Assembly (NCBI GenBank): GCA_030390025.1
Contig: CM059432.1
Location: 59,646,001-59,710,000 of the forward strand
Length of the DNA stretch: 64,000 nt
Direction of reading: 5' to 3'
Origin: Squalus acanthias
Lineage: Eukaryota
Part shown: positions 1,357 through 55,452 of the stretch, piece after piece
Numbering within the stretch: position 1 is the stretch's first letter
Layout of the letters: each line of letters begins with the position of its first letter
Notes under the pieces: generated by a model
Told to the model about the DNA's origin: nothing
Database searches by the model: none
Seen by the model: the letters and a program-made list of their open reading frames with translations, nothing else
Translations under genes and position numbers: made by a program

Positions 1357-1988
1357 TGTACATAATTGAGAGGTCGCACAACACCAGGTTATAGTCCAAC
1401 AGTTTTATTTGAAATCACAAGCTTTCGGAGCTATCGATCGCCCCTTCCTCAGGTGAAGTAAAGAAATACAGACTCGACAAAGCATATATAGAACAAAGCA
1501 TGTGTACCTTACAATTGCAGACAACTAAATTAAATCATCCTGACTATCTGCCGAGGTGTGATAAAGTTAATCAGGTCAGCCAGGAAGGTACCACATCAAA
1601 GACATAGCAAGATACAACTGAGACAATGAGGTGGAGTCGCAGGAGGTCTAACGTGTCAAAAGCTGCCGTCTGTATGTAAAACGATAAGCTGTAAAATTTT
1701 TACTTTTTTACTGGGAACCACATCTGTGAACAAGCCAACGACGACTCGAGTCCGGATCACGTCATGTATCGTGACATAAACCCAAGATCCCGGTTGAGAC
1801 CGTCTTCATGAGTGCGGAACTTGGCTATCAGTTTCTGCTCAATGATTTTGCGTTGTCGTGTGTTCCTAAGGTTGCCTTGGAGAACGCTTACCCGCAGATC
1901 CGAGGCTGAATGTCCTTGACTGCTGAAGTGTTCCCCGACTGGGAGGTAACAATCCTGCCTGGTGATTGTTGCGCGGTGCTCGTTCATA
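1357..1988 (-). mobile_element. Penelope-like element, 5'-truncated (GIY-YIG C-terminus plus pseudo-LTR)
   Basis: ORF 1757-1987 (EHRATI...VGEHFSSQGHS...EQKLIAKFRTHEDGLNRD) fits the C-terminus of a PLE GIY-YIG endonuclease. The downstream 3' region matches the pLTR copies at 20525-21135. Confidence 0.88.
1415..1456 (-). ncRNA. Minimal type I hammerhead ribozyme motif in Penelope pLTR
   Basis: Minus strand: TCAC CTGAGGA A GGGGC-GATCGATA-GCTCC GAAA GC TT GTGA, giving a CUGANGA/GAAA core, stem II, helix I TCAC/GTGA and a palindromic AAGCTT in place of helix III. Confidence 0.75.
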
Positions 1989-7315: not shown

Positions 7316-7516
<201 letters not shown>

Positions 7517-11842: not shown

Positions 11843-11922
11843 AGGATAGGAGAACCAGCAAGTTAATATTTGTTTTAGCTTATTTTAATTTTCAAATATT
11901 AACTTGCTGGTTCTCCTATCCT
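11843..11922. repeat. Perfect 30-bp inverted repeat with 20-nt spacer
   Basis: AGGATAGGAGAACCAGCAAGTTAATATTTG (11843-11872) and its exact reverse complement (11893-11922). Confidence 0.95.
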
Positions 11923-17789: not shown

Positions 17790-18630
17790 TATTCTCGCGA
17801 AATCATATGGCTCGACGCTTCAACTTTTTTAGCGACACTACGACATTTCCAGGATAGCAATGTTAAAGTTTAGATATCGGTCTAGAATTCATCTCAATAC
17901 GATCTGAAGTTGCTGTTTATATTTACTCCTCGCAATCCAGGGAGCTTGAAAACTGCGCAACGAACCCTGGTGCAATCTGCACAAAACCGGCTCAACGTCC
18001 GATCCATAAGGATTTCTTAAAGTTTTAATGATTGTGGATTCAGATTGGAGGTTTTGGCCTTGGTTTGTGACCAGACTCTCCCGGGCCCCCATCACCCAGC
18101 TCCTCTCCCGGTCGGGACGCTTGTCGCCCGGGGGTAGAGGGGGGCCTTACCCCGGGGACTTTACACGCAAGACACCCGTTTCCCAGCCCGGCGGCTTCTT
18201 ACCGTTTTCCAGCCTGACGAGCTGAGGTAACCGGTACGAACTGACTAGCGAGTCAAGCGGCCGCGCGATCCCGCTCCACTGCATCTCCTTGGTGCCGCTC
18301 AGCGTCTCCATGCTGCCCGGTGGCGCCGCTCTAACCGGCGCAGAGACAGGAGGCGCTCAGTCGCAGGCTTCCATCCGGCCTGCGAGCTGCAGGCTCCTTG
18401 GGGCGGGGGTTTGGGGTGGGCTGCGAGTGCTGTCGTGCTGGGCTTCGTGCCGTGCTCCCGAAGCGCCATGCCAGGAATCACACGCTCCAGTCCGGGGCAG
18501 CCGTGGTGCCACTCGCACTAGACGACGGGACAGAGGAGCCGCGCCGCTACCCCATCCATCCCTCCCTCCCGCTCCCGGCGGACGCAACCTTCCTTCATGG
18601 GCCGATCACATCTGCGCAGCCGTAGACACC
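17790..18630. promoter_or_regulatory. CpG island covering GAREM1 promoter, 5' UTR and exon 1
   Basis: Non-repeat, GC- and CpG-dense stretch around the start codon, with GGGGCGGGG GC-box-like motifs, in an otherwise CpG-poor background. Confidence 0.8.
18203..18311 (-). CDS. GAREM1: GAREM1 (GRB2-associated regulator of MAPK1, FAM59A), coding exon 1
   Basis: Minus strand reads ATG (context GCAGC-ATG-G) METLSGTKEMQWSGIARPLDSLVSSYRLPQLVRLEN+G, followed by a GTAAG donor at 18202. It is 109 nt, phase 1. It resembles the GAREM1 N-terminus as I recall it (WSSVAVPLDLLVSTYRLPQIARLDNG) and joins exon 2 in frame. Confidence 0.93.
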
Positions 18631-18984: not shown

Positions 18985-19690
18985 TTCATAACCAGAGCAT
19001 CTTCCTGCCCCCACACCATTACCTCTGAGTCCCTCAAGGATCTACCCTAGGCACCTTCCTATTCCTCATCTACATTCTGCCCCTTGGCAATATCATCCAA
19101 CGATATGGGATCAGCTTCCAGAAGTATGCTCATAACACCCAGCTCAACCTCTCTGAACTCGTCCAATGCCTCTGTGATGTCAGACTGCTTGCTGACATCC
19201 AAATTGGATGAGCTACAATTTTATCTAGTTAAACATTGGGAAGACCAAAGCCATAATTTTTGGTCCCCATCACAAACTCCATAACCCATGCCACCGATTC
19301 CATCCCTCCTCCCCGGCCACCATCTCTGGTTGAACCTGACTGTTTGCAGCCTCGACATTCGACTTTGACCCTGAGCTGAGCTTCTGACTCTATATCCTCT
19401 GTCACAAAGACCATATATTTCCACCTCTGTAACGTTGCCCACCTCCACTCCTGCTTCAGCCCTTCTGCTGTTAAAACTCTTATCCATGCCTTTTTGTATC
19501 ACCAGACTCAACTATTCCAATACTCTCCTGACTAGCCTCCCATCCTCCATGATCTGTAAACATAAGCTGATCCAGAACTCTGCTGCACGCATCCTATCCC
19601 ACACCAAATCCCACTCACCCATCACTCCTGTCCTTGCTGACTTACATTGGTTCCTTGTTCCCCAACACTTCCAATTTAAAATTCTCATCC
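18985..19690 (+). mobile_element. Degenerate L2 fragment
   Basis: TRLNYSN...QNSAARIL...LADLHWF. It is followed by a short GGGGGTGAAAAT Harbinger-MITE-like end at about 19692-19790. Confidence 0.75.
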
Positions 19691-20574
19691 ATGGGGGTGA
19701 AAATGGCTTTGGTGAAATCGCGAAATGCCCGATAGCGAATCAGCAGCCCATTTTACACCGCGCCCGATGTTCTTTTCTATTGAAGTCAATTATTTCTCTA
19801 ATTTGTTTACATATCTCTTCCTCTTTTCCACTGTTCGGTGGTCTATAATGTACTCCCAGTAGAGTCTCAGCTCCCTTAGAGTCATAGAGTTATACAGCAC
19901 AGAAAGAGACCATTCGGCTCATCGTGTCTGCGCCGGCCATCAAGCCCTGTCTATTCTAATCCCATTTTCTAGCACTTGGTCCGTAGCCTTGTATGCTATG
20001 GCGTTTCAAGTGCTCATCTAAATGCTTCTTGAAAGTTGTGAGGGTTCCTGCCTCTGCCACCCTTTCAGGCAGTGAGTTCCAGATTCCAACCACCCTCTGG
20101 GTGAAAAAGTTTTTCCTCAAATCCCCTCTAAACCTCCTGCCCCTTACCTTGAAACTATGCCCCCTGGTTATTGACACCTCTACTAAGGGGAAAAGTTCCT
20201 TTCTACCTACCCTATCTATGCCCCTCATAATTTTATACACCTCAATCAGGTCCCCCCTCAGCCTTCTCTGCTCTAAGGAAAACAACCCCAGCCTGTCCAG
20301 TCTCTCTTCATAGCTGAAGTGCTGCAGCCCAGGTAACATCCTGGTGAATCTCCTCTGCACCCTCTCCAATGCAATCACATCCTTCCTATAGTGTGGCGAC
20401 CAGAACTGCACACAGTATTCCAGCTGTGGCCTAACTAGCGTTTTGTACAGTTCCATCATAACCTCCCTGCTCTTATATTCTGTTCATGATGCGGAGATGC
20501 CGGTGTTGGACTGGGGTGGACAAAATTGAGAGGTCGCACAACACCAGGTTATAGTCCAACAGTTTTTTTTGAAA

Positions 20575-20616
20575 TCACAAGCTTTCGGAGCTATCGATTG
20601 CCCCTTCCTCAGGTGA
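20575..20616 (-). ncRNA. Minimal hammerhead ribozyme motif (left arm)
   Basis: Exact reverse complement of the motif at 21044-21085. Confidence 0.75.
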
Positions 20617-21043
20617 AGTAAATTAGATACAGAATCGCCAAAGCATATATAGATAGAGAACAAAGCATGTGTACCTTACAATTGCAGACCACTAAATTAA
20701 ATCATCCTGACTATCTGCCGAGGTGTGATAAAGTTAATCAAGTCAGCCAGGAAGGTACCACATCAAAGACATAGCAAGATACAACTGAGACAATGAGGTG
20801 TAGTCGCAGGGGTTCTAAAGTGTCAAAACACGTTAGACACGTTAGAACCCCTGCGACTACACCTCATTGTCTCAGTTGTATCTTGCTATGTCTTTGATGT
20901 GGTACCTTCCTGGCTGACTTGATTAACTTTATCACACCTCGGCAGATAGTCAGGATGATTTAATTTAGTGGTCTGCAATTGTAAGGTACACATGCTTTGT
21001 TCTCTATCTATATATGCTTTGGCGATTCTGTATCTAATTTACT

Positions 21044-21085
21044 TCACCTGAGGAAGGGGCAATCGATAGCTCCGAAAGCTTGTGA
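21044..21085 (+). ncRNA. Minimal hammerhead ribozyme motif (right arm)
   Basis: TCAC CTGAGGA A GGGGC-AATCGATA-GCTCC GAAA GC TT GTGA, followed by AATAAA at 21091-21096. Confidence 0.78.
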
Positions 21086-21597
21086 TTTCAAATAAAACTG
21101 TTGGACTATAACCTGGTGTTGTGCGACCTCTCAATCTTATATTCTGTGCCTCGGCTAATGAAGGCAAGTATCCCATATGCCTTCTTAACCACCTTATCTA
21201 CCTGTCCTGCTGCCTTCAGGGATCTATGTACAAGGTCCCTCTGATCCTCTGTCCTTCCTAGGGTCCTACCATTCATTGTGTATTCCCTTGCCTTGTTAGT
21301 CCTCCCAAAATGCATCACCTCACACTTTTTAGGGTTAAATTCCATTTGCCACTGTTCCGCCCATCTGACCATCCCGTCTATATTGTCCTGTAGCCTGAGG
21401 CTTCCCTCCTCGCTATTTACCACCCCACCAATTTTCCTGTCATCTGCGAACTTACTGATCATACCTCCTACATTCATATCTAAATCATTAATGTACACTA
21501 CAAACAGCAACAGACCCAGCACCGATCCCTGCGGTACACCACTGGACACAGGCTTCCAGTCACAAAAACAACCTTCGACCATCACCCTCTGCCTCCT

Positions 21598-21860
21598 GAT
21601 GCGGAGATGCCGGTGTTGGACTGGGGTGGACAAAAGTGAGAAGTCGCACAACACCAGGTTATAGTCCAACAGTTTTATTTGAAATCACAAGCTTTCGGAG
21701 CTGCTGCTCCTTCTCCTTCATTGTTCTCTGTCTATATATGCTTTGCCGATTTGTATTCCTTCACTTCACCTGACGAAGGAGCAGCAGCTCCGAAAGCTTG
21801 TGATTTCAAATAAAACTGTTGGACTATAACCTGGTGTTGTGCGATTTCTCACTTTTGTCC
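21598..21860. mobile_element. Penelope mini-insertion 2 (different subfamily): tail plus inverted pLTR ends (86-bp arms)
   Basis: Arms 21628-21713 and 21775-21860 differ at 1 position. The direct repeat CCTCTGCCTCCTG occurs at 21586-21598 and 21859-21871. Confidence 0.9.
21766..21803 (+). ncRNA. Minimal hammerhead ribozyme motif
   Basis: TCAC CTGACGA A GGAGC-AGCA-GCTCC GAAA GC TT GTGA. Confidence 0.8.
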
Positions 21861-23017
21861 TCTGCCTCCTGCCACTAAGCCAATTTTGGATCCAGTGTGC
21901 CAAATTGCCCTGGATCCCATGGTATCTTAACTTCTTGCCCAGTCTCCCATGTGGGACTTTGTCAAAAGCCTTACTGAAGTCCATGTAGATTACATCAACT
22001 GCACTACCCTCATCCACACACCTAGTCACTCCCTCAAAAAATTGAATCAAATTGGTTAGACATGATCTCCCCCTGACAAAGCTATGCTGACTATCCTTGA
22101 TTAATCCTTGCCTCTCCAAGTGGAAACTAATTTTGTCCCTCAGAATTTTTTCCAATAATTTCCCTACCACTGATGTTAGGCTCACTGGCCTGTAATTCCC
22201 TGGTTTATCCCTACTACCCTTCTTGAATAATGGTACTACGTTAGCTGTCCTCCAGTCCTCTGGCACCTCCCCAGTGGCCAGAGAGGTTCTGAAAATTTGT
22301 GTCAGAGCCCCTGCAATCTCCTCTCTTGCCTCACACAGCAGCCTGGTATACATCTCGTCTGGGCCTGGGGATTTATCCACTTTTAAGCCCGCTAAAACTG
22401 CTAGTACCTCCTCCGTCTCAATGCTAATTTGTTCAAGTATATCACAATCCCCCTGCCTGATTTCTATGCCTACATCGTCCTTCTCCATAGTGAACACAGA
22501 TGCAAAATATTCATTTAAAACCTCACCTACATCTTCTGGCTCTACACACAGATTGCCACTTTGGTCCCTAATGGGCCCTACTCTTTCCCTGGTTATCCTC
22601 TTGCCCTTAATATACCGATAAAACACCTTGGGATTTTCCTTTATTTTGCACGCCAGTGTTTTTTCATGCCCCCTCTTCGCTCTCCTAATTTATTTTTTAA
22701 CTAGAGTGCAGTTTGTCACGGAGTGCAGATTGGAACAGAGTGTTAAGCTGCGAGTTTGGTGAGTGAGTGAGTGAGTGAGGGGAGGGAGGTATTCCTTTCT
22801 TTTTCCATCTTTGTCAGCTTCCAGGAGAGCAGGAGCTAAAAAGCTGCACAAGAGGGGACAGCGAACCAGCGGTGAGTATTTCTACAGTATTTCTACATTC
22901 CAGTCATTAAAGTAAAAGTAAGGTCTCTAGTTTAGAGTAAGTAGTGTTTAAAGGGAAGTAAGGTCCCTAGTGTATTTAATATTCTTTAATTTAAAGGGAG
23001 TAAATTAAGGGTAGGAC

Positions 23018-23980: not shown

Positions 23981-24077
23981 GGGGATGGGATATGGAGTGG
24001 AGCTATAGTAGGGGGTGATGCACAGCCAAATATAGAGGAAAAAACAAGTCAGCCTGGAAGGCAGAGCAAATATGTAA

Positions 24078-26895
24078 TGGCACAAGGGAGTATGGCAAGG
24101 CTGGATGGCATTTATTTTAATGCAAGGAGTCTTGCGAGTAAGGCAGATGAATCGAAGGTGTTAATGAACACATGGGAGTATGATGTTGTTGCTATCACAG
24201 AGACATGGTTGAGGGAGGGGCGGGACTGGCAGCTCAATATTCCGGGGTATAGAATCTTCAGGCGAGACAGAGAGGGGTGTAAAGGAGGAGGGGGTGTTGC
24301 AATATTAATCAAGGAGTCAATTACTGCTGTAAGGAGGGATGATATCTTAGTAGGTTCCTCTAATGAGGCCAGATGGGTAGAACTTAAAAAAAAAAAGGGG
24401 GCAAGCTCTTTGCTGGGAGTGTACTATAGGCCCCCAAACAGTCAGGGGGAGATAGAGGAACAGATATGCAGGCAAATCTCAGAGAAGTGTAGAAATAATA
24501 GGGTAATAATAGTAGGGGATTTCAACTTCCCCAATATTAACTGGAATAGTCAGAGTGTGAAAGGCTTGGAGGGTGCGGGATTCTTAAAGTGCATCCAGGA
24601 GCGCTTTTTGAGTCAGCATGTCGAAAGTCCTACAAGAGAGGGGGCAGTACTGGACCTAATTCTAGGGAATGTAGCCGGGCAAGCGGTAGAAGTGTTAGTA
24701 GGAGAGCATTTTGGTGACAGTGACCATAATTTGGTGAGATTTAAGGTAGTCATGGAAAAGGCCAAAGATGGACCGGAAATAAAGGTTCTAAATTGGGGGA
24801 AGGCCGATTTTGATATGATAAGGCAGGATCTGGCCAAAGTGGACTGGGATCAGCTACTTGCAGGAAAATCCACATCAGAGCAGTGGGAGTCTTTCAGAAA
24901 GGAAACAGAGAGAGTACAACAGCAACATGTTCCCGTAAAGGTCAAGGGTGTGACCAACAAACTCAGGGAACCCTGGATGTCAAGGAATATACGAGAATGG
25001 ATTAGGAAAAAAAGGGAGGCTTTTGGCAGATACAAAGGACTAAAAATAGTGGAAGCCCTAGTGGAGTATAGAAAGTGCAGGGGGGTACTTAAAAAATAAA
25101 TTAGGAGAGCGAAGAGGGGGCATGAAATAACACTGGCGGGCAAAATAAAGGAAAATCCCAAGGTGTTTTATAAGTATATTAAGGGCAAGAGGATAACCAG
25201 GGAAAGAGTAGGGCCCATTAGTGACCAAAGTGGCAATCTGTGTGTAGAGCCAGAAGATGTAGGTGGGGTTTTAAATGAATATTTTGCATCTGTGTTCACT
25301 ATGGAGAAGGACGATGTAGGCATAGAAATCAGGCAGGGGTATTGTGATATACTTGAACAAATTAGCATTGAGACGGAGGAGGTACTAGCAGTTTTAGCGG
25401 GCTTAAAAGTGGAGAAATCCCCAGGCCCAGACTAGATGTATCCCAGGCTGCTGTGTGAGGCAAGGAGGAGATTGCAGGGGCTCTGACACAAATTTTCAGA
25501 ACCTCTCTGGCCACAGGGGAGGTGCCAGAGGACTGGAGAACAGCTAACGTAGTACCATTATTCAAGAAGGGTAGTAGGGATAATCCAGGGAATTACAGGC
25601 CAGTGAGCCTAACATCAGTGGTAGGTAAATTTTTGGAAAAAATTCTGAGGAACAGAATTAGTCTCCACTTGGCGAGGCAAGGATTAATCAAGGATAGTCA
25701 GCATGGCTTTATCAGGGGGAGATCATGTCCAACCAATTTGATTGAATTTTTCGAGGGGCTGACTAGGTGTGTGGATGAGGGTAGTGCAGTTGATGTGGTC
25801 TACATGGACTTCAGTAAGGCTTTTGACAAAGTCCCGCATGGGAGACTGGTCAAGAAGGTAAGAGCCCATGGGATCCAGGGCAACTTGGCACATTGGATCC
25901 AAAATTGGCTTAGTGGCAGGAGGCAGAGGGTGATGGTCGAAGTTTGTTTTTGTGACTGGGAGCCTGTGTCCAGTGGTGTACCGCAGGGATCGGTGCTGGG
26001 TCCTTTGCTGTTTGTAGTGTCCATTAATGATTTAGATATGAATGTAGGAGGTATGATCAGTAAGTTCGCAGATGACAGGAAAATTGGTGGGGTGGTAAAT
26101 AGCGAGGAGGGAAGCCTCGGGCTACAGGACGATATAGACGGGTTGGTCAGATGGGCAGAACAGTGGCAAATGGAATTTAACCCTGAAAAGTGTGAGGTGA
26201 TGCATTTTGGGAGGACTAACAAGGCAAGGGAATACACAATGAATGGTAGGACCCTAGGAAGGACAGAGGATCAGAGGGACCTTGTACATAGATCCCTGAA
26301 GGCAGCAGGACAGGTAGATAAGGTGGTTAAGAAGGCATATGGGATACTTGCCTTCATTAGCCGAGGCACAGAATATAAGAGCAGGGAGGTTATGATGGAA
26401 CTGTACAAAACGCTAGTTAGGCCACAGCTGGAATACTGTGTGCAGTTCTGGTCGCCACACTATAGGAAGGATGTGATTGCATTGGAGAGGGTGCAGAGGA
26501 GATTCACCAGGATGTTACCTGGGCTGCAGCGCTTCAGCTATGAAGAGAGACTGGACAGGCTGGGTTTGTTTTCCTTAGAGCAGAGAAGGCTGAGGGGGGA
26601 CCTGATTGAGGTGTACAAAATTATGAGGGGCATAGGTAGGGTAGATAGGAAGGAACTTTTCCCCTTAGTAGAGGGGTTCGTAACCAGTGGGCATAGTTTC
26701 AAGATAAGGGGCAGGAGGTTTAGAGGGGATTTGAGGAAAAACTTTTTCACCCAGAGGGTGGTTGGAATCTGGAACTCACTGCCTGAAAGAGTGGTAGAGG
26801 CAGGAACCCTCAAAACATTCAAGAAGTATTTAGATGAGCACTTGAAACGCCATAGCATACAAGGCTACGGACCAAGTGCTGGAAAATGGGATTAG
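24078..26895 (+). pseudogene. CR1-B ORF2 (APE endonuclease + RT), disrupted
   Basis: Endonuclease motifs ITETWL, YRPP, GDFNFP and SDHN; RT motifs YRPVSLTS, DFSKAFDKV, GVPQGSVLGP and FADD. Stops at 25097-25099 and 25433-25435, plus a frameshift before 25522. Confidence 0.9.
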
Positions 26896-26967
26896 AATAG
26901 ACAGGGCTTGATGGCTGGCACGGACACGATGGGCCGAAGGGCCTCTTTCTGTGCTGTGTAACTCTAT

Positions 26968-27775
26968 GGGCTCGATTTTATCAATGGAGGCGAGCAGGCG
27001 GCGGGACTCCCACTTTTGGGGTTGTAGTCCCGCCTCCATCGAGTTGTGGCCAACCCACTCGATTTTCCCTTGATTGACTTTGTTGAGCCTGCCCAGCAGG
27101 CTCAGCAGGCCAATTAAGGGCCACCCGGCAACAAGTGACGTCACAGATTGACATTTCATCTGTCATGAGCTTTTGACAGATGAAATATCAGCGTTTGACA
27201 GCTCCTTGAAGCTGTCAAACACTGACAATCTGTCTCGAAGTTAATTCCTTCCTCTCAGGCTGATTTAGAGATCTCTGCAGAACAAAAAGCAGAGGCTGCA
27301 GCTTTTGACAGCTCAATGGCCATTCTGCTTTCTGTGCCAGTGAGATTTCTGACTCCCGAGACCTGAAGGGCTGACACCTGCAGGAGGAAGTTAAGGTAAG
27401 TAAAACTTTTTCCACACTTTACACTTACCTTACACACTTACCTCTGCACACATGCACCCATCACTCACCTGCCCACCGGACATATCGACCCCTCCAACCC
27501 CTGCAGACCCACGGTCCGCCTCGCTAAAACGGCGTGGTTTGGAGCCGTCGGGTAGCCCACATTTCAGGGCTAAAAATAGGGATTTATCAACAATTGTCAC
27601 TTATCCCCTTCCCGCCTCGGGGAGGCGGCTCCCAGCACAGGTCGGGTCCCCGCCTCCTGGAACATTGGCACGGAGGCGGGTTGGGGGCGGGATGGGTTCG
27701 TTCCACCCAATTTCGCGATTTTATCCCCCCTCCCGCCTCCAATCCCACCTCCACGGGCCGATGAAAATCGAGCCC
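26968..27775. mobile_element. PIF/Harbinger-type MITE in the CR1-B tail
   Basis: Perfect 12-bp TIR GGGCTCGATTTT / AAAATCGAGCCC and TSD TAT. Confidence 0.88.
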
Positions 27776-28866
27776 TATGACTCTACCCCCCTGCACTTTC
27801 TATACTCCTCTAGGGCTTCCACTGTTTTTAGTCCTTTGTATCTGCCAAAAGCCTCCCTTTTGTTCCTAATCAATTCTTGTATATCCCTTGACATCCAGGG
27901 TTCCCTGGACTTGTTGGTCCCACCCTTGACCTTTACGGGAACATGTTGGTGCTGTACTCTCACTATTTCCTTTCTGAATGACTCCACTGCTCTGATGTGG
28001 ATTTTCCGACAAGTAGCTGATCCCAGTCCACTTTGGCCAGATCCTGCCTTATCATATTAAAATCAGCCTTCCCCCAATTTAGAACCTTTATTTCCGGTCC
28101 ATCTTTGTCCTTTTCCATGACTACCTTAAATCTCACCGAATTATGGTTACTGTCACCAAAATGCTCTCCTGCTGACACTTCTACCACTTGCCCGGCTACA
28201 TTCCCTAGAATTAGGTCCAGTACCGCCCCCTCTCTTGTAGGACTTTCTACATGCTGGCTCAAAAAGCTCTCCTGGATGCACTTTAAGAATTCCGCACCCT
28301 CCAAGCCTTTCACACTCTGACTATCCCAATTAATATTGGGGAAGTTGAAATCCCCTACTATTATTACCCTATTATTTCTACACTTCTCTGAGATTTGCCT
28401 GCATATCTGTTCCTCTATCTCCCCCTGACTGTTTGGGGGCCTATAGTACACTCCCAGCAAAGTGCTTGCCCCCTTTTTGTTTTTAAGTTCTACCCATATG
28501 GCCTCATTAGAGGAACCTGCTGAGATATCATCCCTCCTTACAGCAGTAATTGACTCATGGATTAAGATTGCGACACCCCCTCCTCTTTTACACCCTCCTC
28601 TGTCTCGCCTGAAGATTCTATACCCCGGAATATTGAGCTGCCAGTCCTGCCCCTCCCTCAACCATGTCTCTGTGATAGCAACAATATCATACTCCCATGT
28701 GTTCATCAACACCTTCAATTCATCTGCCTTACTCGCAAGACTCCTTGCATTAAAATAAATGCCATCCAGCCTTGCCATACTCCCTTGTGCCATTACATAT
28801 TTGCTCTGTCTTCCAGACTGACTTGTTTTTTTCCTCTATATTTGGCTGTGCATCACTCCCTACTAT

Positions 28867-50054: not shown

Positions 50055-50295
50055 TGTTGAGGCTGCCGCGAAACACGAATTAAGGCTGAATCCATTTGTG
50101 TTTAACAAGAGACTTTTTAATCACAGCATGGCACAAAATGGCAGAACCGAAAAGCTCCCAGAATTCTCTGGGTAAAACCTGAGGCCCCGCCCCCTCCTGC
50201 CTTAAAGGTAAGGTGCCTTAAAGGGAAGGGGCTGAAAATTTGTCCACAGATGGAAGAGTGGATTATGCCCGTTTTAAGTGGCGATCCGCCACACA
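50055..50295 (-). repeat. 3' LTR
   Basis: Direct repeat of 54166-54406, preceded on the minus strand by a polypurine tract. Confidence 0.95.
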
Positions 50296-50313
50296 GCTCC
50301 CCCCAGAATCCGC

Positions 50314-53300
50314 TTAGGAGGTGTGGACGAGACGGTGCGGCGGTCTGATGGGCTGGCCGGAGCGGCTCTTGTAGGACGCCGGTGGACGTGGAACGGCCGG
50401 GCGTGGAGCAGCCGGGTGAACCGGCTTGAGGGCAGGTCGGCCGCGTGGAGGTGGACGAGCTACAGGGACCTGCTCACTGGGCTCCGAGTGTGCTGGCTTG
50501 AGTCGGTCAACCGACACTTTTTCGGTCCTGTCACCCACTTGCAGGGTGAAAAATTTGTCCCCAGCCTGTAGCACCTTGTAGGGCCCGTCATATGGGGGTT
50601 GAAGGGGTCTGCGGTGGGCGTCGTGCCGGACGAAAACAAACCGTGCCTGGTGCAGGCTTAGTGGGACGTGTGAGGTGGATTCGCCGTGTCGGGCAATGGG
50701 CACCGGGGCGAACTGCAGCGCCGGTGAGGTGAAGTTGTGGCGTTGCTGGTCGGCTGACCAGGGTGTCGTGGCGGTGGGCAGGAACTCGCCGGGTACGCGC
50801 AGCGGCTGACCGTACACGAGCTCTGCTGCCGATGCGTGGAGGTCTTCTTTAACCGCGGTGCGCAGGCCGAGGAGGACCCACGGAAGTCGGTCGGTCCCGG
50901 CGCCGTCTTGGAGGCTGGCTCGAAGAGATGCCTTCAAGGATCTGTGGAACTGCTCACACAGTCCGTTGGCTTGGGGGTGGTACGCTATGGTGCGGTGAAT
51001 GGTCACCCCGAGATTGAGTGCGACGGCGGTCCAGAGTTCAGAGGTAAATTGCGGACCTCTGTCCAACGTCATGTTGGAGGGGACGCCGAACTGTGCGACC
51101 CAGGTGCTGACGACGGCTCTGGCGATGTCGGCGGTGGTGGTAGAGGTCAGTGGAATTGCCTCAGGCCAGCGTGTGGTGCGGTCAACGATGGTCAGCAAGT
51201 GTTGTGGCCTTGCGACGGCGGCAGGGGCCCGACGATGTCCACGTGGATGTGGTCGAATCTCCGCGAGGGGACAGTAAACTCCTCGAGGGATGCTTTTGTG
51301 TGTTGCTGTACCTTGGCCCGTTGGCAGGCTAGGCAAGAGTTGGCCCAAGTACGCACATCCTTGCGAAGGCCGCGCCAGACGAAGCGGTTGGCTACCAATT
51401 TGATGGATGCGCAGGCGCCGGGGTGGGAGAGGTTGTGGAGAATGTCGAATACCCGGCGGCGCCAGGACGCTGGGACGACGGGCCGAGGTTGACATAGGGA
51501 TATGTCGCACTTGACCGTGACAGCGGTCGGCCCACAGGCGACGTCGGCCAGGCGTAGCCCTGGTAGGTTGGTGGGTGCGGAGAGCAGATCAGGGTCGGTG
51601 ATCTGGTCTGCTGCGAGTCGAGCGTAGTCGACTGCTAGGTGTGCGGCGTGGATGGCGGGGCGGGAGAGGCAGTCGGCTACCACATTGTCTCAGCCGGAGA
51701 CATGTTGAATGTCCGTGGTGAACTCGGACACTGCCACGAGCTGGCGCTGCTGCCTGGCGGACCAGGGGTCGGTTGTCTTTGCCATTGCGAATGTCAGGGG
51801 CTTGTGGTTGACAAACGCAGTGAAGGGGTGGCCCTCAAGCAAAAACCGGAAATGGCGGACCGCCAGGAACAGCGCGAGGAGCTAGCGGTCGAAGGTGCTG
51901 TACTTGACCTCCGGGGGGCGTAGTTGGCGGCTGAAGAAGGCAAGTGGTTGCCAGGCGCCGTCGACCCACTGCTCATACACGGCGCCGACCGCGTGGTCGG
52001 AGGCATCCGTGGTGAGCGCTACCCTGGCATTGGGCCGTGGGTGCGCGAGCAGGGTGGCGTTGGCGAGCGCAGTCTTGGTGGAATCGAAGGCGGCGGACGC
52101 GTCTGCCGTCCATTCGACCGCCATCTTGCCGCTCCTGCCCCGGAGGGCTTCATACAGGGGCCTCATGAGGGACGCCACTTTGGGGATGAAGCGGTTATAG
52201 AAATTCACCATCCCGAGGAACTCCTGGAGGCCTTTGATGGTGGTGGGGCGGGGAAATTGTTGGACGGCCTGCACCTTGGTGGGCAGGGGAATGGCCCCAG
52301 CATGGGTGATGTGGTGGCCGAGGAAGTCGATCTTGTCCAGGCCGAACTGGCATTTGGCTGGGCTGAGGATGAGCCCATGGTCGCTGAGGCGCCCGAACAG
52401 GATGCGAAGGTGTTCGAGGTGTTCCTGCTTGGAGGAACTGGCTACCAGGATGTCGTCCAGGTAGACGAACAGGAACTTCAGGTCCCGAAGGACCGAGTCC
52501 ATGAGCCGTTGGAATGCCTGGGCCGCGTTTTTGAGGCCGAAGGGCATCCGCAGGAACTCGAACAGGCCGAAGGGGGTGATTACGGCCATCTTTGGGACGT
52601 CCGCGGGGTGGACGGGGACTTGGTGGTAGCCGCGCACCAGGTCGACCTTGGAAAAGACTGAGCGGCCGGCCAGTCTAGCCGGGAAGTCCTGAATGTGCGG
52701 CACGGGGTACCGATCAGGGGTGGTGGCGTCATTGAGGCGGCGGTAATCCCCGCAGGGGCGCCAACCTCCGCCTGGTTTGGGGGCGATGTGGAGTGGGGAG
52801 GCCCAGGGACTGTTGGAGCGGCGGATGATGCCGAGCTGTTCCATGGTGGCAAACTCGGTCCGCGCGATCTCCAGTTTGGCCGGGTCCAGCCTGCGGGTGT
52901 GGGCGTACACTGGGGGGCCTGTGGTGGGCATGAAGTGTTCCACCCCGTGTTTGGCGGCCTCCGCGGAGAAGGTCGGATTGGTAAGGGCCGGGAATTCGGC
53001 CAGGAGTGCCGAGTAGTCATCCGTGGCCCGGGCGTGGCACTGTGACGCCATGTCGGCGGGTTGACGGGGGGCCATGGCGCCCAGGATGGGGGACATGGTG
53101 TTCATGTCCACGAGGCGGTGACGAGGGATGTCTACCAGTAGGCCGTGGGCGCACAGGAAATCTGCGCCGATGAGAGGGGAGAGCACCTTGGCAGTGATGA
53201 ACTCCCATCGGTAGCGGTGACCAGCGAGGTCGAGGGTAACTGTCCGGGTGCCATACGTCTGGATTTCCGAGCCGTTAGCAGCAGCCAGCGCCGGTCCTCG

Positions 53301-54125
53301 TTCACCCTTTTGGATGTCGAGGGAGGAGGCCGGGATGATGCTGTGCTGAGCCCCAGTGTCGCACAGGAACCGGCGGCCGGTTTTGTCATCTGTGACGAAC
53401 AGCAGGGAGCCCGCGTGGCCCACGGCCATCGCGGGGGCTGGAACGGGGGCAGACTTGAAAGAGCAGGGAGGTGTGCACCGTTGTGCCCTGGCGCCGAACC
53501 GTGCGTGGTAGTAACAGTGGCCCGGGTTAGTGGGCCGTGAAGGCCCCGTGGGCCTGGTGACAGGCCCTTTTGGCCGCGTGGTGGCCGGTGAGGGGCGCGC
53601 CCAGGCATTGGCTGCCAGGTCCGGAGTGACGTCACGGCTGGAGTGAGCGGACAGCAGCTTGTCGGCCTCATCGGCCAGGGCTTCCAGGTTCGTGAGGCCG
53701 GACGCCACGATCGCTGGGCGGATGCTGAGAGGGAGCTGGCGGATGAACAGCGTTCGGAAGAGGGATCCGGGTGGGCTCTCGTCGGTGAGGGAGAGCATGT
53801 GGGAGAGGAGGTCTGATGGTGAGGCATCACCGAGGCCTGGAAGGTCGAGGAGGTGGCAGTTTCGCTGATATGACGAGGCCGTAAATTTTTTAAGGAGCGC
53901 TGTCCTGAGATGTGCGTACTTGCCTTCCTCTGGTGGGTTCTGCAGCGTTGTCCAAACCTTGGAAACTGTGGTGCTACCGAGTGATGTGACGAGATAGTCG
54001 TACTTCGTCCCATCTGCGGTGATATTTTGCAGCCGGAAGCGAGATTCAGCTTGGAGAAACCAGGCTTCGGGCTGGTTTTCCCAAAACTCCGGCAGTTTCA
54101 CGGAAACTGCGTTCGTGTCCGCCAT
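50314..54125 (-). pseudogene. Gypsy gag-pol polyprotein, lightly disrupted
   Basis: Gag KLPEFW...CYYHARFGARAQRCTPPC; protease LCDTGA; RT YLDD; RNase H TDAS; integrase HHCC, HVDIVGP, DRGPQF, NGLCEQFHR and GPY. Stops near 51882 and 51690 and a frameshift near 51200. Confidence 0.92.
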
Positions 54126-54150
54126 TGCAGTGCTCGGAATACGTTCTGAG

Positions 54151-54164
54151 CGTCGGGGTCACCA
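54151..54164 (-). promoter_or_regulatory. Primer-binding site, tRNA-Trp
   Basis: TGGTGACCCCGACG lies 1 nt after the LTR and is complementary to the tRNA-Trp 3' end (CGTCGGGGTCACCA). Confidence 0.85.
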
Positions 54165-54165
54165 A

Positions 54166-54406
54166 TGTTGAGGCTGCCGCGAAACACGAATTAAGGCTGA
54201 ATCCATTTGTGTTAAACAAGAGACTTTTTAATCACAGCATGGCACAAAATGGCAGAACCGAAAAGCTCCCAGAATTCTCTGGGTAAAACCTGAGGCCCCG
54301 CCCCCTCCTGCCTTAAAGGTAAGGTGCCTTAAAGGGAAGCGGCTGGAAATTTGTCCACAGACGGAAGAGTGTATTATGCCTGTTTTAGGTGGCGATCCGC
54401 CACACA
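54166..54406 (-). repeat. 5' LTR
   Basis: Direct repeat of 50055-50295 with 7 substitutions. Confidence 0.95.
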
Positions 54407-55452
54407 GTATTTAAAGTTTTACTATGTTTTTTCATTGATCTCCATTCATATATTTGACAGGTCTTCCTGTCAAATGTATGAAGGGAGATTCCCTTCCGTG
54501 ATTGGCTCCCCATGGCCCACGTGATCCCAGGGACGCTGCGAACTACATGCGCCCATGGGATATGTGGGCCCTGCGCACTTCAAGTTTGGTGAGGCCCAGG
54601 AGCGAAAGCATGTGCGTCCCGGGAGCCCTCAGGTAAGGGCGTAGATTTTTCAGATCGCAGGCTTCCGCCCGTGGGAGGCCTGCGATCGGAAAATACGGGC
54701 CAAAGTATTGTTGTTATTACTATGCAGTGTCTGAGTCTATTCTAGTTGAAACTAATACAACAGAAGCATATGTGGATATTGAACAGGATTGTTAATTTAG
54801 GAAAGCTAAATACTTTACCTTACAGTTGCTCAGAAATTACTATTGGACGTGACAAATAGGTGTAACCAAGCACAAGGTTGCAACATCGGTTGTTGAGCAA
54901 AGCTAGGGGATAACGGGTATTGGGTCTCATGGGGTTTGAGATCTCACAAAAATTAGCTATAATTACCACAATGGAACCACCATAAGTTTATTTTGTAACT
55001 TTATTATACAGTTTAATGTTTACCCTCCCACTAGTGCCTTCAGACAGCCTAATGTACACCACCATTTGAGATGTTTCAGCAGGCAAGATCTATTTCTTGT
55101 GTTCTACTTTAATCCCTAGGTAAAGTTAAATACAATTACTCTTTTTGTCTGATTCTGTTACTTAAAAAAAAAATGGAAGTCACAAATGCATCCACCAAAT
55201 ATGTTTTTAAATGAATCAAACAATTTAAAATGCCAATTTATAATCATATCTTTAAAATCATAAGTCACAAAACAAAGAGGTACAAATTTCTTGCCAGTTC
55301 AATCTTGTTAAACAGAAAATGCAGTAATGCAAACTCTCACTTTTTATTAAGGCCTATTTAGATTTCACAGTTTTATGATTAAAAAGTGTGGCAAGAGTTA
55401 AACGCACATTATGCACATTTCCTTGTCATACAAGTCCAAAGACACAATTTGT

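Follow-up and report, generated by a model that had tools for sequence, protein, structure and literature searches.

On sequence grounds, a near-perfect 611-bp palindrome of Squalus acanthias, hereafter A, is a dead, 5'-truncated Penelope-like insertion in which two head-to-head copies of the 3' end of the element lie within one target-site duplication (TSD). We have hardly any doubt that A is an ordinary inverted insertion of a Penelope-like element (PLE), and each of its architectural features has already been published (PMC8557442, PMC3846280, PMC4209133). The palindrome lies in a 64,000-nt window (assembly GCA_030390025.1, contig CM059432.1, positions 59,646,001 to 59,710,000 of the forward strand), in which all positions are given below. 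The window also holds two relatives of A, named B and C, and it is the comparison of A with both that bears on how its inverted arms were built.

Self-alignment of A gave two arms of 300 nt each (20525-20824 and 20836-21135) that differ at 2 of 300 positions (20567 and 20819) and are separated by a spacer at 20825-20835. The longest exact inverted match was 251 nt, compared with at most 16 nt across 200 shuffles. At both mismatches copy C has the base of the right arm, so both changes took place on the left arm. The change at 20567 turned AATAAA into a run of A on the sense strand of the element; AATAAA is intact at 21091-21096 in the right arm and also in copies B and C. Read against the family template, the left arm (20525-20828, sense on the minus strand) is a 5'-truncated 3' UTR of a Neptune-type PLE, which matches the template up to 20828 (93% identity to copy C over 312 columns). 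The right arm (20836-21135, plus strand) repeats this 3' UTR in inverted orientation and without the tail, and folding predicts a 3' hairpin with the end point of this arm in its apical loop. Between them stands the heptamer CACGTTA (20829-20835), a templated copy of the right-arm start that is missing from the copy C template and creates the tandem ACACGTTAG (20828-20845) at the apex. In this reading of the junctions the two arms end 4 nt apart, and all differences from copy C are common to both. The left arm alone continues into a tail of 41 nt (20484-20524, minus strand), the extreme 3' extension of the element, whose sense-strand end is CATCATGA; that the ATG in it is the start of the next ORF is a guess. 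The geometry described in an earlier note on this DNA, with 300-bp arms, 2 mismatches, a one-sided 41-nt tail and a tandem ACACGTTAG apex, was thus re-found in full.

A was inserted into a fragment of a CR1-type LINE (19883-22703 on the minus strand, delimited by self-BLAST, with RVT_1 in 21769-22689), which received B as well. A 13-nt sequence, TCTTATATTCTGT, flanks A on the left (20471-20483) and on the right (21135-21147), and the duplication is 12 nt long if the T at 21135 is counted as part of the element. A paralogous 3' part of the LINE (25086-26968, plus strand), 96-98% identical to the host LINE, holds the empty sites of A and B. There, at the matching empty site (26330-26420), TCTTATATTCTGT is single, and the LINE sequence picks up in register past the 12-13-bp duplication of A. 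One TSD therefore encloses both arms, and the proposal of a single, non-coding insertion event is supported by the empty paralogous site. The view that A is relatively young is also supported. Its arms differ at 2 of 300 positions, while copy C stands 10-12 substitutions away and the host LINE differs from its paralogue at 25/601 and 10/451 positions; homogenisation of palindrome arms may make A look too young by the first of these figures.

The two LINE copies (19883-22703 and 25086-26968) face each other and form a large inverted pair with a 2.4-kb spacer, which contains ORF1 and the endonuclease part. The LINE that starts from 23015 has an ORF1 of GDSL-esterase type and an ORF2 with endonuclease and RT, and 25086-26968 is part of it. 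Both A and B were inserted in the left copy of the pair, and TGCC is found at the top-strand nick in both targets. A further stretch, 27784-28866, repeats 24005-25087 in inverted orientation at 95% identity.

Copy C (1357-1987, minus strand) comprises the tail-less arm, 95 nt more of the 3' UTR and the last 75 codons of an ORF. It carries the arm of A at 93-94% identity, and its coding part is the C-terminal half of a GIY-YIG domain. Because copy C joins the arm to a Penelope-like ORF, the arms of A can be identified as 5'-truncated 3' UTR, which stops 95 nt before the ORF stop when copy C is taken as template. Copy C lacks an inverted arm, and a search for flanking TSDs of at least 6 nt found none. 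Its tail-less end lies a few bases from the position of the right end of A.

The 75 codons of copy C are 87% identical to the C-terminus of a Heptranchias RT protein, P0001, a shark PLE protein, and the suspected Penelope origin of A is borne out by this match. RVT_1 was called on P0001 by Pfam, and the residues of a GIY-YIG/CCHH domain were found in it by eye, namely the CX4CXXC linker CHSNLCKTC, VVYLIRC-C-WYIG and two His. No GIY-YIG domain was called by Pfam on the copy C fragment, P0001 or P0011; P0022 (53% identical) carries PF01541. The ORF fragment of copy C starts past the linker, and CX4CXXC is therefore read in its 87% relative P0001. A CX2-5CxxC linker ahead of GIY-YIG is a mark of Neptune and Nematis PLEs (PMC8557442). 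Judged by these residues, the source of A, B and C is an EN+ PLE that is Neptune-like. The features found agree with those of EN+ PLEs: an RT with a C-terminal GIY-YIG/CCHH domain (by way of the relative of copy C, A itself being non-coding), an inverted 5'-truncated copy (A and B), a tail at one end only (of 41 nt for A and 31 nt for B) and a TSD of variable length (12-13 bp for A and a 13-nt repeat for B). The 64-kb window contains no RT that belongs to the family.

The arms of A had been described as two Penelope pLTRs. The Penelope-like origin in that description holds, but the arms are truncated 3' UTR and not delimited pLTR units; they would form part of a pLTR, and no tandem (direct-repeat) copy that forms one was found within the window. 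Two more copies of the family, B and C, which the earlier note did not list, lie in the same 64 kb.

Copy B (21597-21860) is a second insertion, of a sister subfamily, 460 bp from A in the same LINE. It has a 31-nt tail on the left and arms of 86 nt (21628-21713 and 21775-21860) that are identical at 85 of 86 positions, with a 61-nt spacer and a 6-nt duplication, TCCTTC, at the apex (21714-21719). The tail-side arm stops at 21713, and a further 54 nt (21721-21774) are present on the tail-less arm only. With the tail on one arm and the 54 extra nt on the other, neither arm of B contains the other. A 13-nt direct repeat (21586-21598 and 21859-21871) encloses copy B, with a 2-nt homology at each inner end. 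A and B therefore follow one design (a one-sided tail, inverted arms, a target repeat and an apex duplication) with different apexes, and the apex signature, a short templated repeat with 1-nt homology, is found in both palindromes.

Family termini were examined in public contigs with a query of 20401-20850 (flank, one arm, the apex and the first 15 nt of the other arm) against 4 of 24 listed short-read runs (X1, X5, X6 and X8). X1 and X5 are runs of the best-matching organism; the records are filtered, and the animals may be without the A insertion. Between 3,526 and 15,568 contigs aligned per run, with those that match the LINE flank counted. Loose ends with unrelated flanks at 20484-20486 were found in at least 148 contigs of X5, at least 28 of X6 and at least 29 of X8, as counted over the best 24 of 597 matches. 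In the 10 joints listed, 11 of 13 contigs pass from LINE flank to a family end, 8 of these 11 at 20522-20527 and the other 3 at 20486-20489. The clustering of junctions at 20484-20489 and at 20522-20527 indicates that each end of A coincides with a standard terminus of the family, the two termini being spaced by about 40 nt.

These contigs also bear on the target. At LINE position 20481, 2-3 nt from the nick of A, 5 of the 11 LINE-to-element contigs among the joints listed are joined to the tail-less end. They represent at least four junction forms from two runs, at depths of 24 to 1,340 as against 10 to 22 at the six other positions, where contig depth is not copy number. This suggests that A lies at a recurrent target within the LINE (20481-20483, TATTCT/ATGCC and variants), possibly an insertion hot spot, which we regard as a lead. 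Contigs with the empty site derive from many LINE paralogues and so carry no information on polymorphism of the insertion.

At the apex, five contigs of X1 diverge from the reference at 20828 and from there continue along the element template as copy C has it. Depth at 20836-20850 was zero in all four runs, with family contigs in the neighbouring bins in X1 and X5, and no strand-changing joint occurs among the 10 joints listed; contigs of this kind show presence, not absence. No apex of any copy was seen by the contig method, and the zero depth therefore argues only weakly against a recurring unit. In the runs of two other organisms, only the last ~110 nt of the element are in common. Exact family patterns gave no matches in metagenome contigs and none in viral contigs. 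Two matches in bacterial genomes were dismissed as chance, being confined to a 19-20-nt pattern, and the one locus returned by a protein scan of metagenome contigs, at 30% identity, was excluded.

Among known systems, A is most readily compared with the complex insertions of EN+ PLEs. An inverted 5'-truncated copy together with a one-sided tail of 30-40 bp is typical of PLEs (PMC8557442), and inverted pLTRs with TSDs of 8-10 bp were described in Adineta (PMC3846280). A shares with these insertions the head-to-head copies, the one-sided tail, a TSD of about 10 bp, a palindrome at the inverted junction and a target that is another non-LTR element (PMC8557442; PMC3846280). Unlike in those insertions, both copies of A end within the 3' UTR, there is no ORF, the whole insert is one 611-bp hairpin, the TSD is 12-13 bp and the apex carries a short templated repeat. 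In PAc, a Poseidon element of Anolis carolinensis, reverse transcription starts at two sites that lie one genomic tail length apart, with a start in a stem-loop, and both strands are nicked and extended (PMC11167929). The family of A resembles PAc in having two termini spaced by the tail, with the tail-less end in a predicted stem-loop, but its hammerhead lies ~95 nt before the tail end, whereas that of PAc overlaps the ORF start (PMC11167929). A is also like the non-LTR retrozymes, which are non-coding, bear hammerheads and come from PLE pLTRs (bioRxiv 10.64898/2026.07.22.740005). Retrozymes, however, are head-to-tail units with two sense hammerheads, while A is inverted with one sense motif per transcript (bioRxiv 10.64898/2026.07.22.740005), and a retrozyme was ruled out for A, its copies being inverted and without a head-to-tail tandem. 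A MITE or DNA transposon was likewise ruled out by the PLE 3' UTR arms, the one-sided tail and the 12-13-bp TSD.

The building of inverted arms is an unsettled step according to both PMC8557442 and PMC11167929. For A and B, we favour, with moderate confidence in the whole mechanism, priming at two nicks combined with a snap-back of the longer cDNA. Its established base is that both arms are family 3' UTR, that there is one 12-13-bp duplication and that there are two recurrent termini. The enzyme would nick both strands, a step suggested by in-vitro work on the anole Penelope element (PMC11167929). One 3'-OH would prime at the tail end and the other, by analogy, at an internal start in the 3' stem-loop; priming at two different start sites would leave the tail on one side only. 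The tail-less end of A does lie in a predicted hairpin loop, resembling the stem-loop start site in PMC11167929. As the junctions suggest, the longer of the two cDNAs (that of the top strand in A and that of the bottom strand in B) would then halt and snap back on a 1-nt pairing, copy 7-9 nt, slip and restart, leaving the apex duplication. The restarted cDNA would copy itself and then anneal to the shorter cDNA, so that the palindrome would be a by-product of insertion, made anew at each event.

This mechanism draws on two insertions, A and B, and each pulls in its own direction. The layout of B, in which the tail and the 54 extra nt sit on opposite arms, calls for two primed ends, and that of A, with arm ends within 4 nt and shared differences from copy C, calls for arms that are coupled. 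Dual priming with snap-back fits both. The apex duplications fit slippage where the shorter cDNA ends and a templated insertion made by repair equally well, and B could be a longer palindrome that was trimmed asymmetrically afterwards. Against a transfer of the mechanism, the in-vitro data concern a Poseidon-clade element, and the family of A, B and C is Neptune-like. Palindromic junctions have been ascribed to self-priming on an antisense RNA template (PMC3846280), and each half of our combined model is already in print; the combination of dual priming and snap-back was not found in the mostly open literature searched, and Fig. S2 of PMC11167929 may already show inverted ends.

A fold-back primed once was the origin proposed in the earlier note, and it comes close to the self-priming idea in PMC3846280. 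The near-symmetric apex of A fits the snap-back that this requires, and the right arm of A lies entirely inside the left, but the layout of B exceeds what one tail-side fold-back gives. If the tail-side nick alone primed and the product joined the second nick ~40 nt short, A would be accounted for, and B only with a later deletion. Asymmetric central deletion is established for long palindromes and could have trimmed B in this way. It is nevertheless an additional event that B demands, copy C presents a long tail-less end without a tail-side partner, and the cluster of tail-less ends at 20522-20527 is better explained by a priming site than by a random stop, for which reasons we consider a single fold-back unlikely. 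Each nick could instead have primed its own cDNA, either on a single RNA that was read twice or on two RNAs held by a dimer, and the two products could have been end-joined head to head without any fold-back. PAc, a predicted dimer, cleaves both strands and extends both (PMC11167929), the arm ends of B lie 54 nt apart as free cDNAs would leave them, and the apex duplication of A is readable as 9-nt slippage on a 2-nt homology. Independent truncations would rarely fall within 4 nt of each other, however, and the symmetry of A becomes a coincidence unless both cDNAs ran off the same RNA end; two freely joined cDNAs are thus quite improbable.

The remaining explanations place the palindrome outside a single PLE insertion. 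A self-propagating palindromic family had been raised as a possibility, in which a non-autonomous unit re-inserts its hairpin transcript whole. A does keep the family 3' end, with the tail and a hammerhead motif that could act in cis, and pLTRs are described as acting in trans on other sequence (PMC3846280). Yet each of the three copies has a 5' end of its own, the apexes of A and B differ, which argues against a mobile palindromic unit, and the five X1 contigs run past the apex position into the element template; the zero depth at 20836-20850 adds weakly to this. We therefore set the proposal aside as very improbable, and the apex as a natural boundary of the family was ruled out by copy C and the same five contigs, which read through it. 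An assembly or sequencing fold-back can hardly be credited at all. The apex is crossed by no contig in X1 and X5, as an artefact would have it, but the LINE is in register after the 12-13-bp duplication, the arms differ at two positions, the tail is on one side only, B has the same design with a 61-nt spacer, and a fold-back at read level would also mirror the flank.

The presence of a hammerhead motif on each strand of A, reported earlier, was reproduced by pattern scan and folding. The motifs are of minimal type I and lie at 20575-20616 in the left arm (minus strand, core 20612-20579) and at 21044-21085 in the right arm (plus strand, core 21048-21081, with a predicted cut after 21081), their cores being ~440 bp apart. 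Each has a helix I of 4 bp, CUGAGGA, an extra A, a helix II of 5 bp, GAAA and a palindromic AGCU. B has a complete motif on the plus strand only (21770-21799), and helix II shows covariation, being GGGGC/GCUCC in A and GGAGC/GCUCC in B. The features of minimal hammerheads were all found, that is, a CUGANGA/GAAA/UH core, a base between 9 and 10.1, G10.1-C11.1, a palindromic 15.2-16.2 and a helix I of 4-5 bp. Like the minimal hammerheads of metazoan PLEs, those of A have a short helix I, the extra base 9/10.1, G10.1-C11.1, the palindromic 15.2-16.2 and a partner on the opposite strand, and they differ from those of PMC4209133 in a helix II of 5 bp and a predicted cleavage triplet CUU. An Rfam scan of 19500-22500 returned no hammerhead family; its six matches at E<=1 were unrelated and below gathering scores, and miRNA matches, also below gathering scores, were rejected as reflecting hairpin shape only.

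Dual PLE hammerheads lie ~100-700 bp apart on opposite strands, and a single minimal motif shows no cleavage, with low-level cleavage by dimers (PMC4209133). The arms of A diverge from the apex, so that a transcript from either side has the antisense arm first. In equilibrium folding, the predicted pairing of helix II was 0.96 for the isolated motif and dropped to 0.00, on either strand, once the whole element was folded. The earlier picture of a hairpin with one sense hammerhead holds as far as there is one sense motif in either direction, and a working ribozyme is weakened by this loss of stem II pairing. A ribozyme role at palindrome A is, on these folding models, unlikely; the hammerheads would be passengers, and any read-through of the locus is predicted to trap them in duplex.

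GAREM1 is the nearby gene named in the earlier note, which placed A about 2.2 kb upstream of its start codon, and the distance was measured as 2,173 bp. Exon 1 lies at 18203-18311 on the minus strand, with the ATG at 18311, and its product shares 27 of 36 residues with the white shark GAREM1 N-terminus; against Heptranchias isoform X2 exon 1 gave no match. Exon 2 lies near 7477 on the minus strand and is 98% identical to shark GAREM1. The protein matches of the window point to a cartilaginous fish. A role of A specific to GAREM1 was rejected, A being inside a LINE at a site hit repeatedly elsewhere, and a recurrent LINE target would account for its place near the gene without selection. In intron 1 of GAREM1, 11843-11922 is a perfect inverted repeat with 30-nt arms and a 20-nt AT-rich spacer, which has no match to the Penelope family in the self-comparison of the window. 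Elsewhere, 50055-54407 is an LTR retrotransposon with 242-bp direct repeats (50055-50296 and 54166-54407) that are 97% identical; its DUF7041, RT, RNase H and integrase domains are spread over two frames of the minus strand.

As a lone locus A carries little weight, being one further truncated PLE insertion of the published layout. It is useful as a clean example: the window also supplies an empty-site paralogue and a template copy, so that every junction base can be assigned, and together with B it separates the models of how inverted arms are built in Penelope elements. If read-through transcription crosses loci such as A, they would yield 300 bp of perfect dsRNA, a possible source of silencing RNA against the family. 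More tentatively, and at somewhat less than even confidence, such stump palindromes may be a fossil record of the late steps of Penelope insertion, namely priming at two sites, an abortive snap-back of 7-9 nt and closure by annealing. If this is true, young shark copies, some of them at recurrent LINE hot spots with empty sites, could be used to test these late steps.
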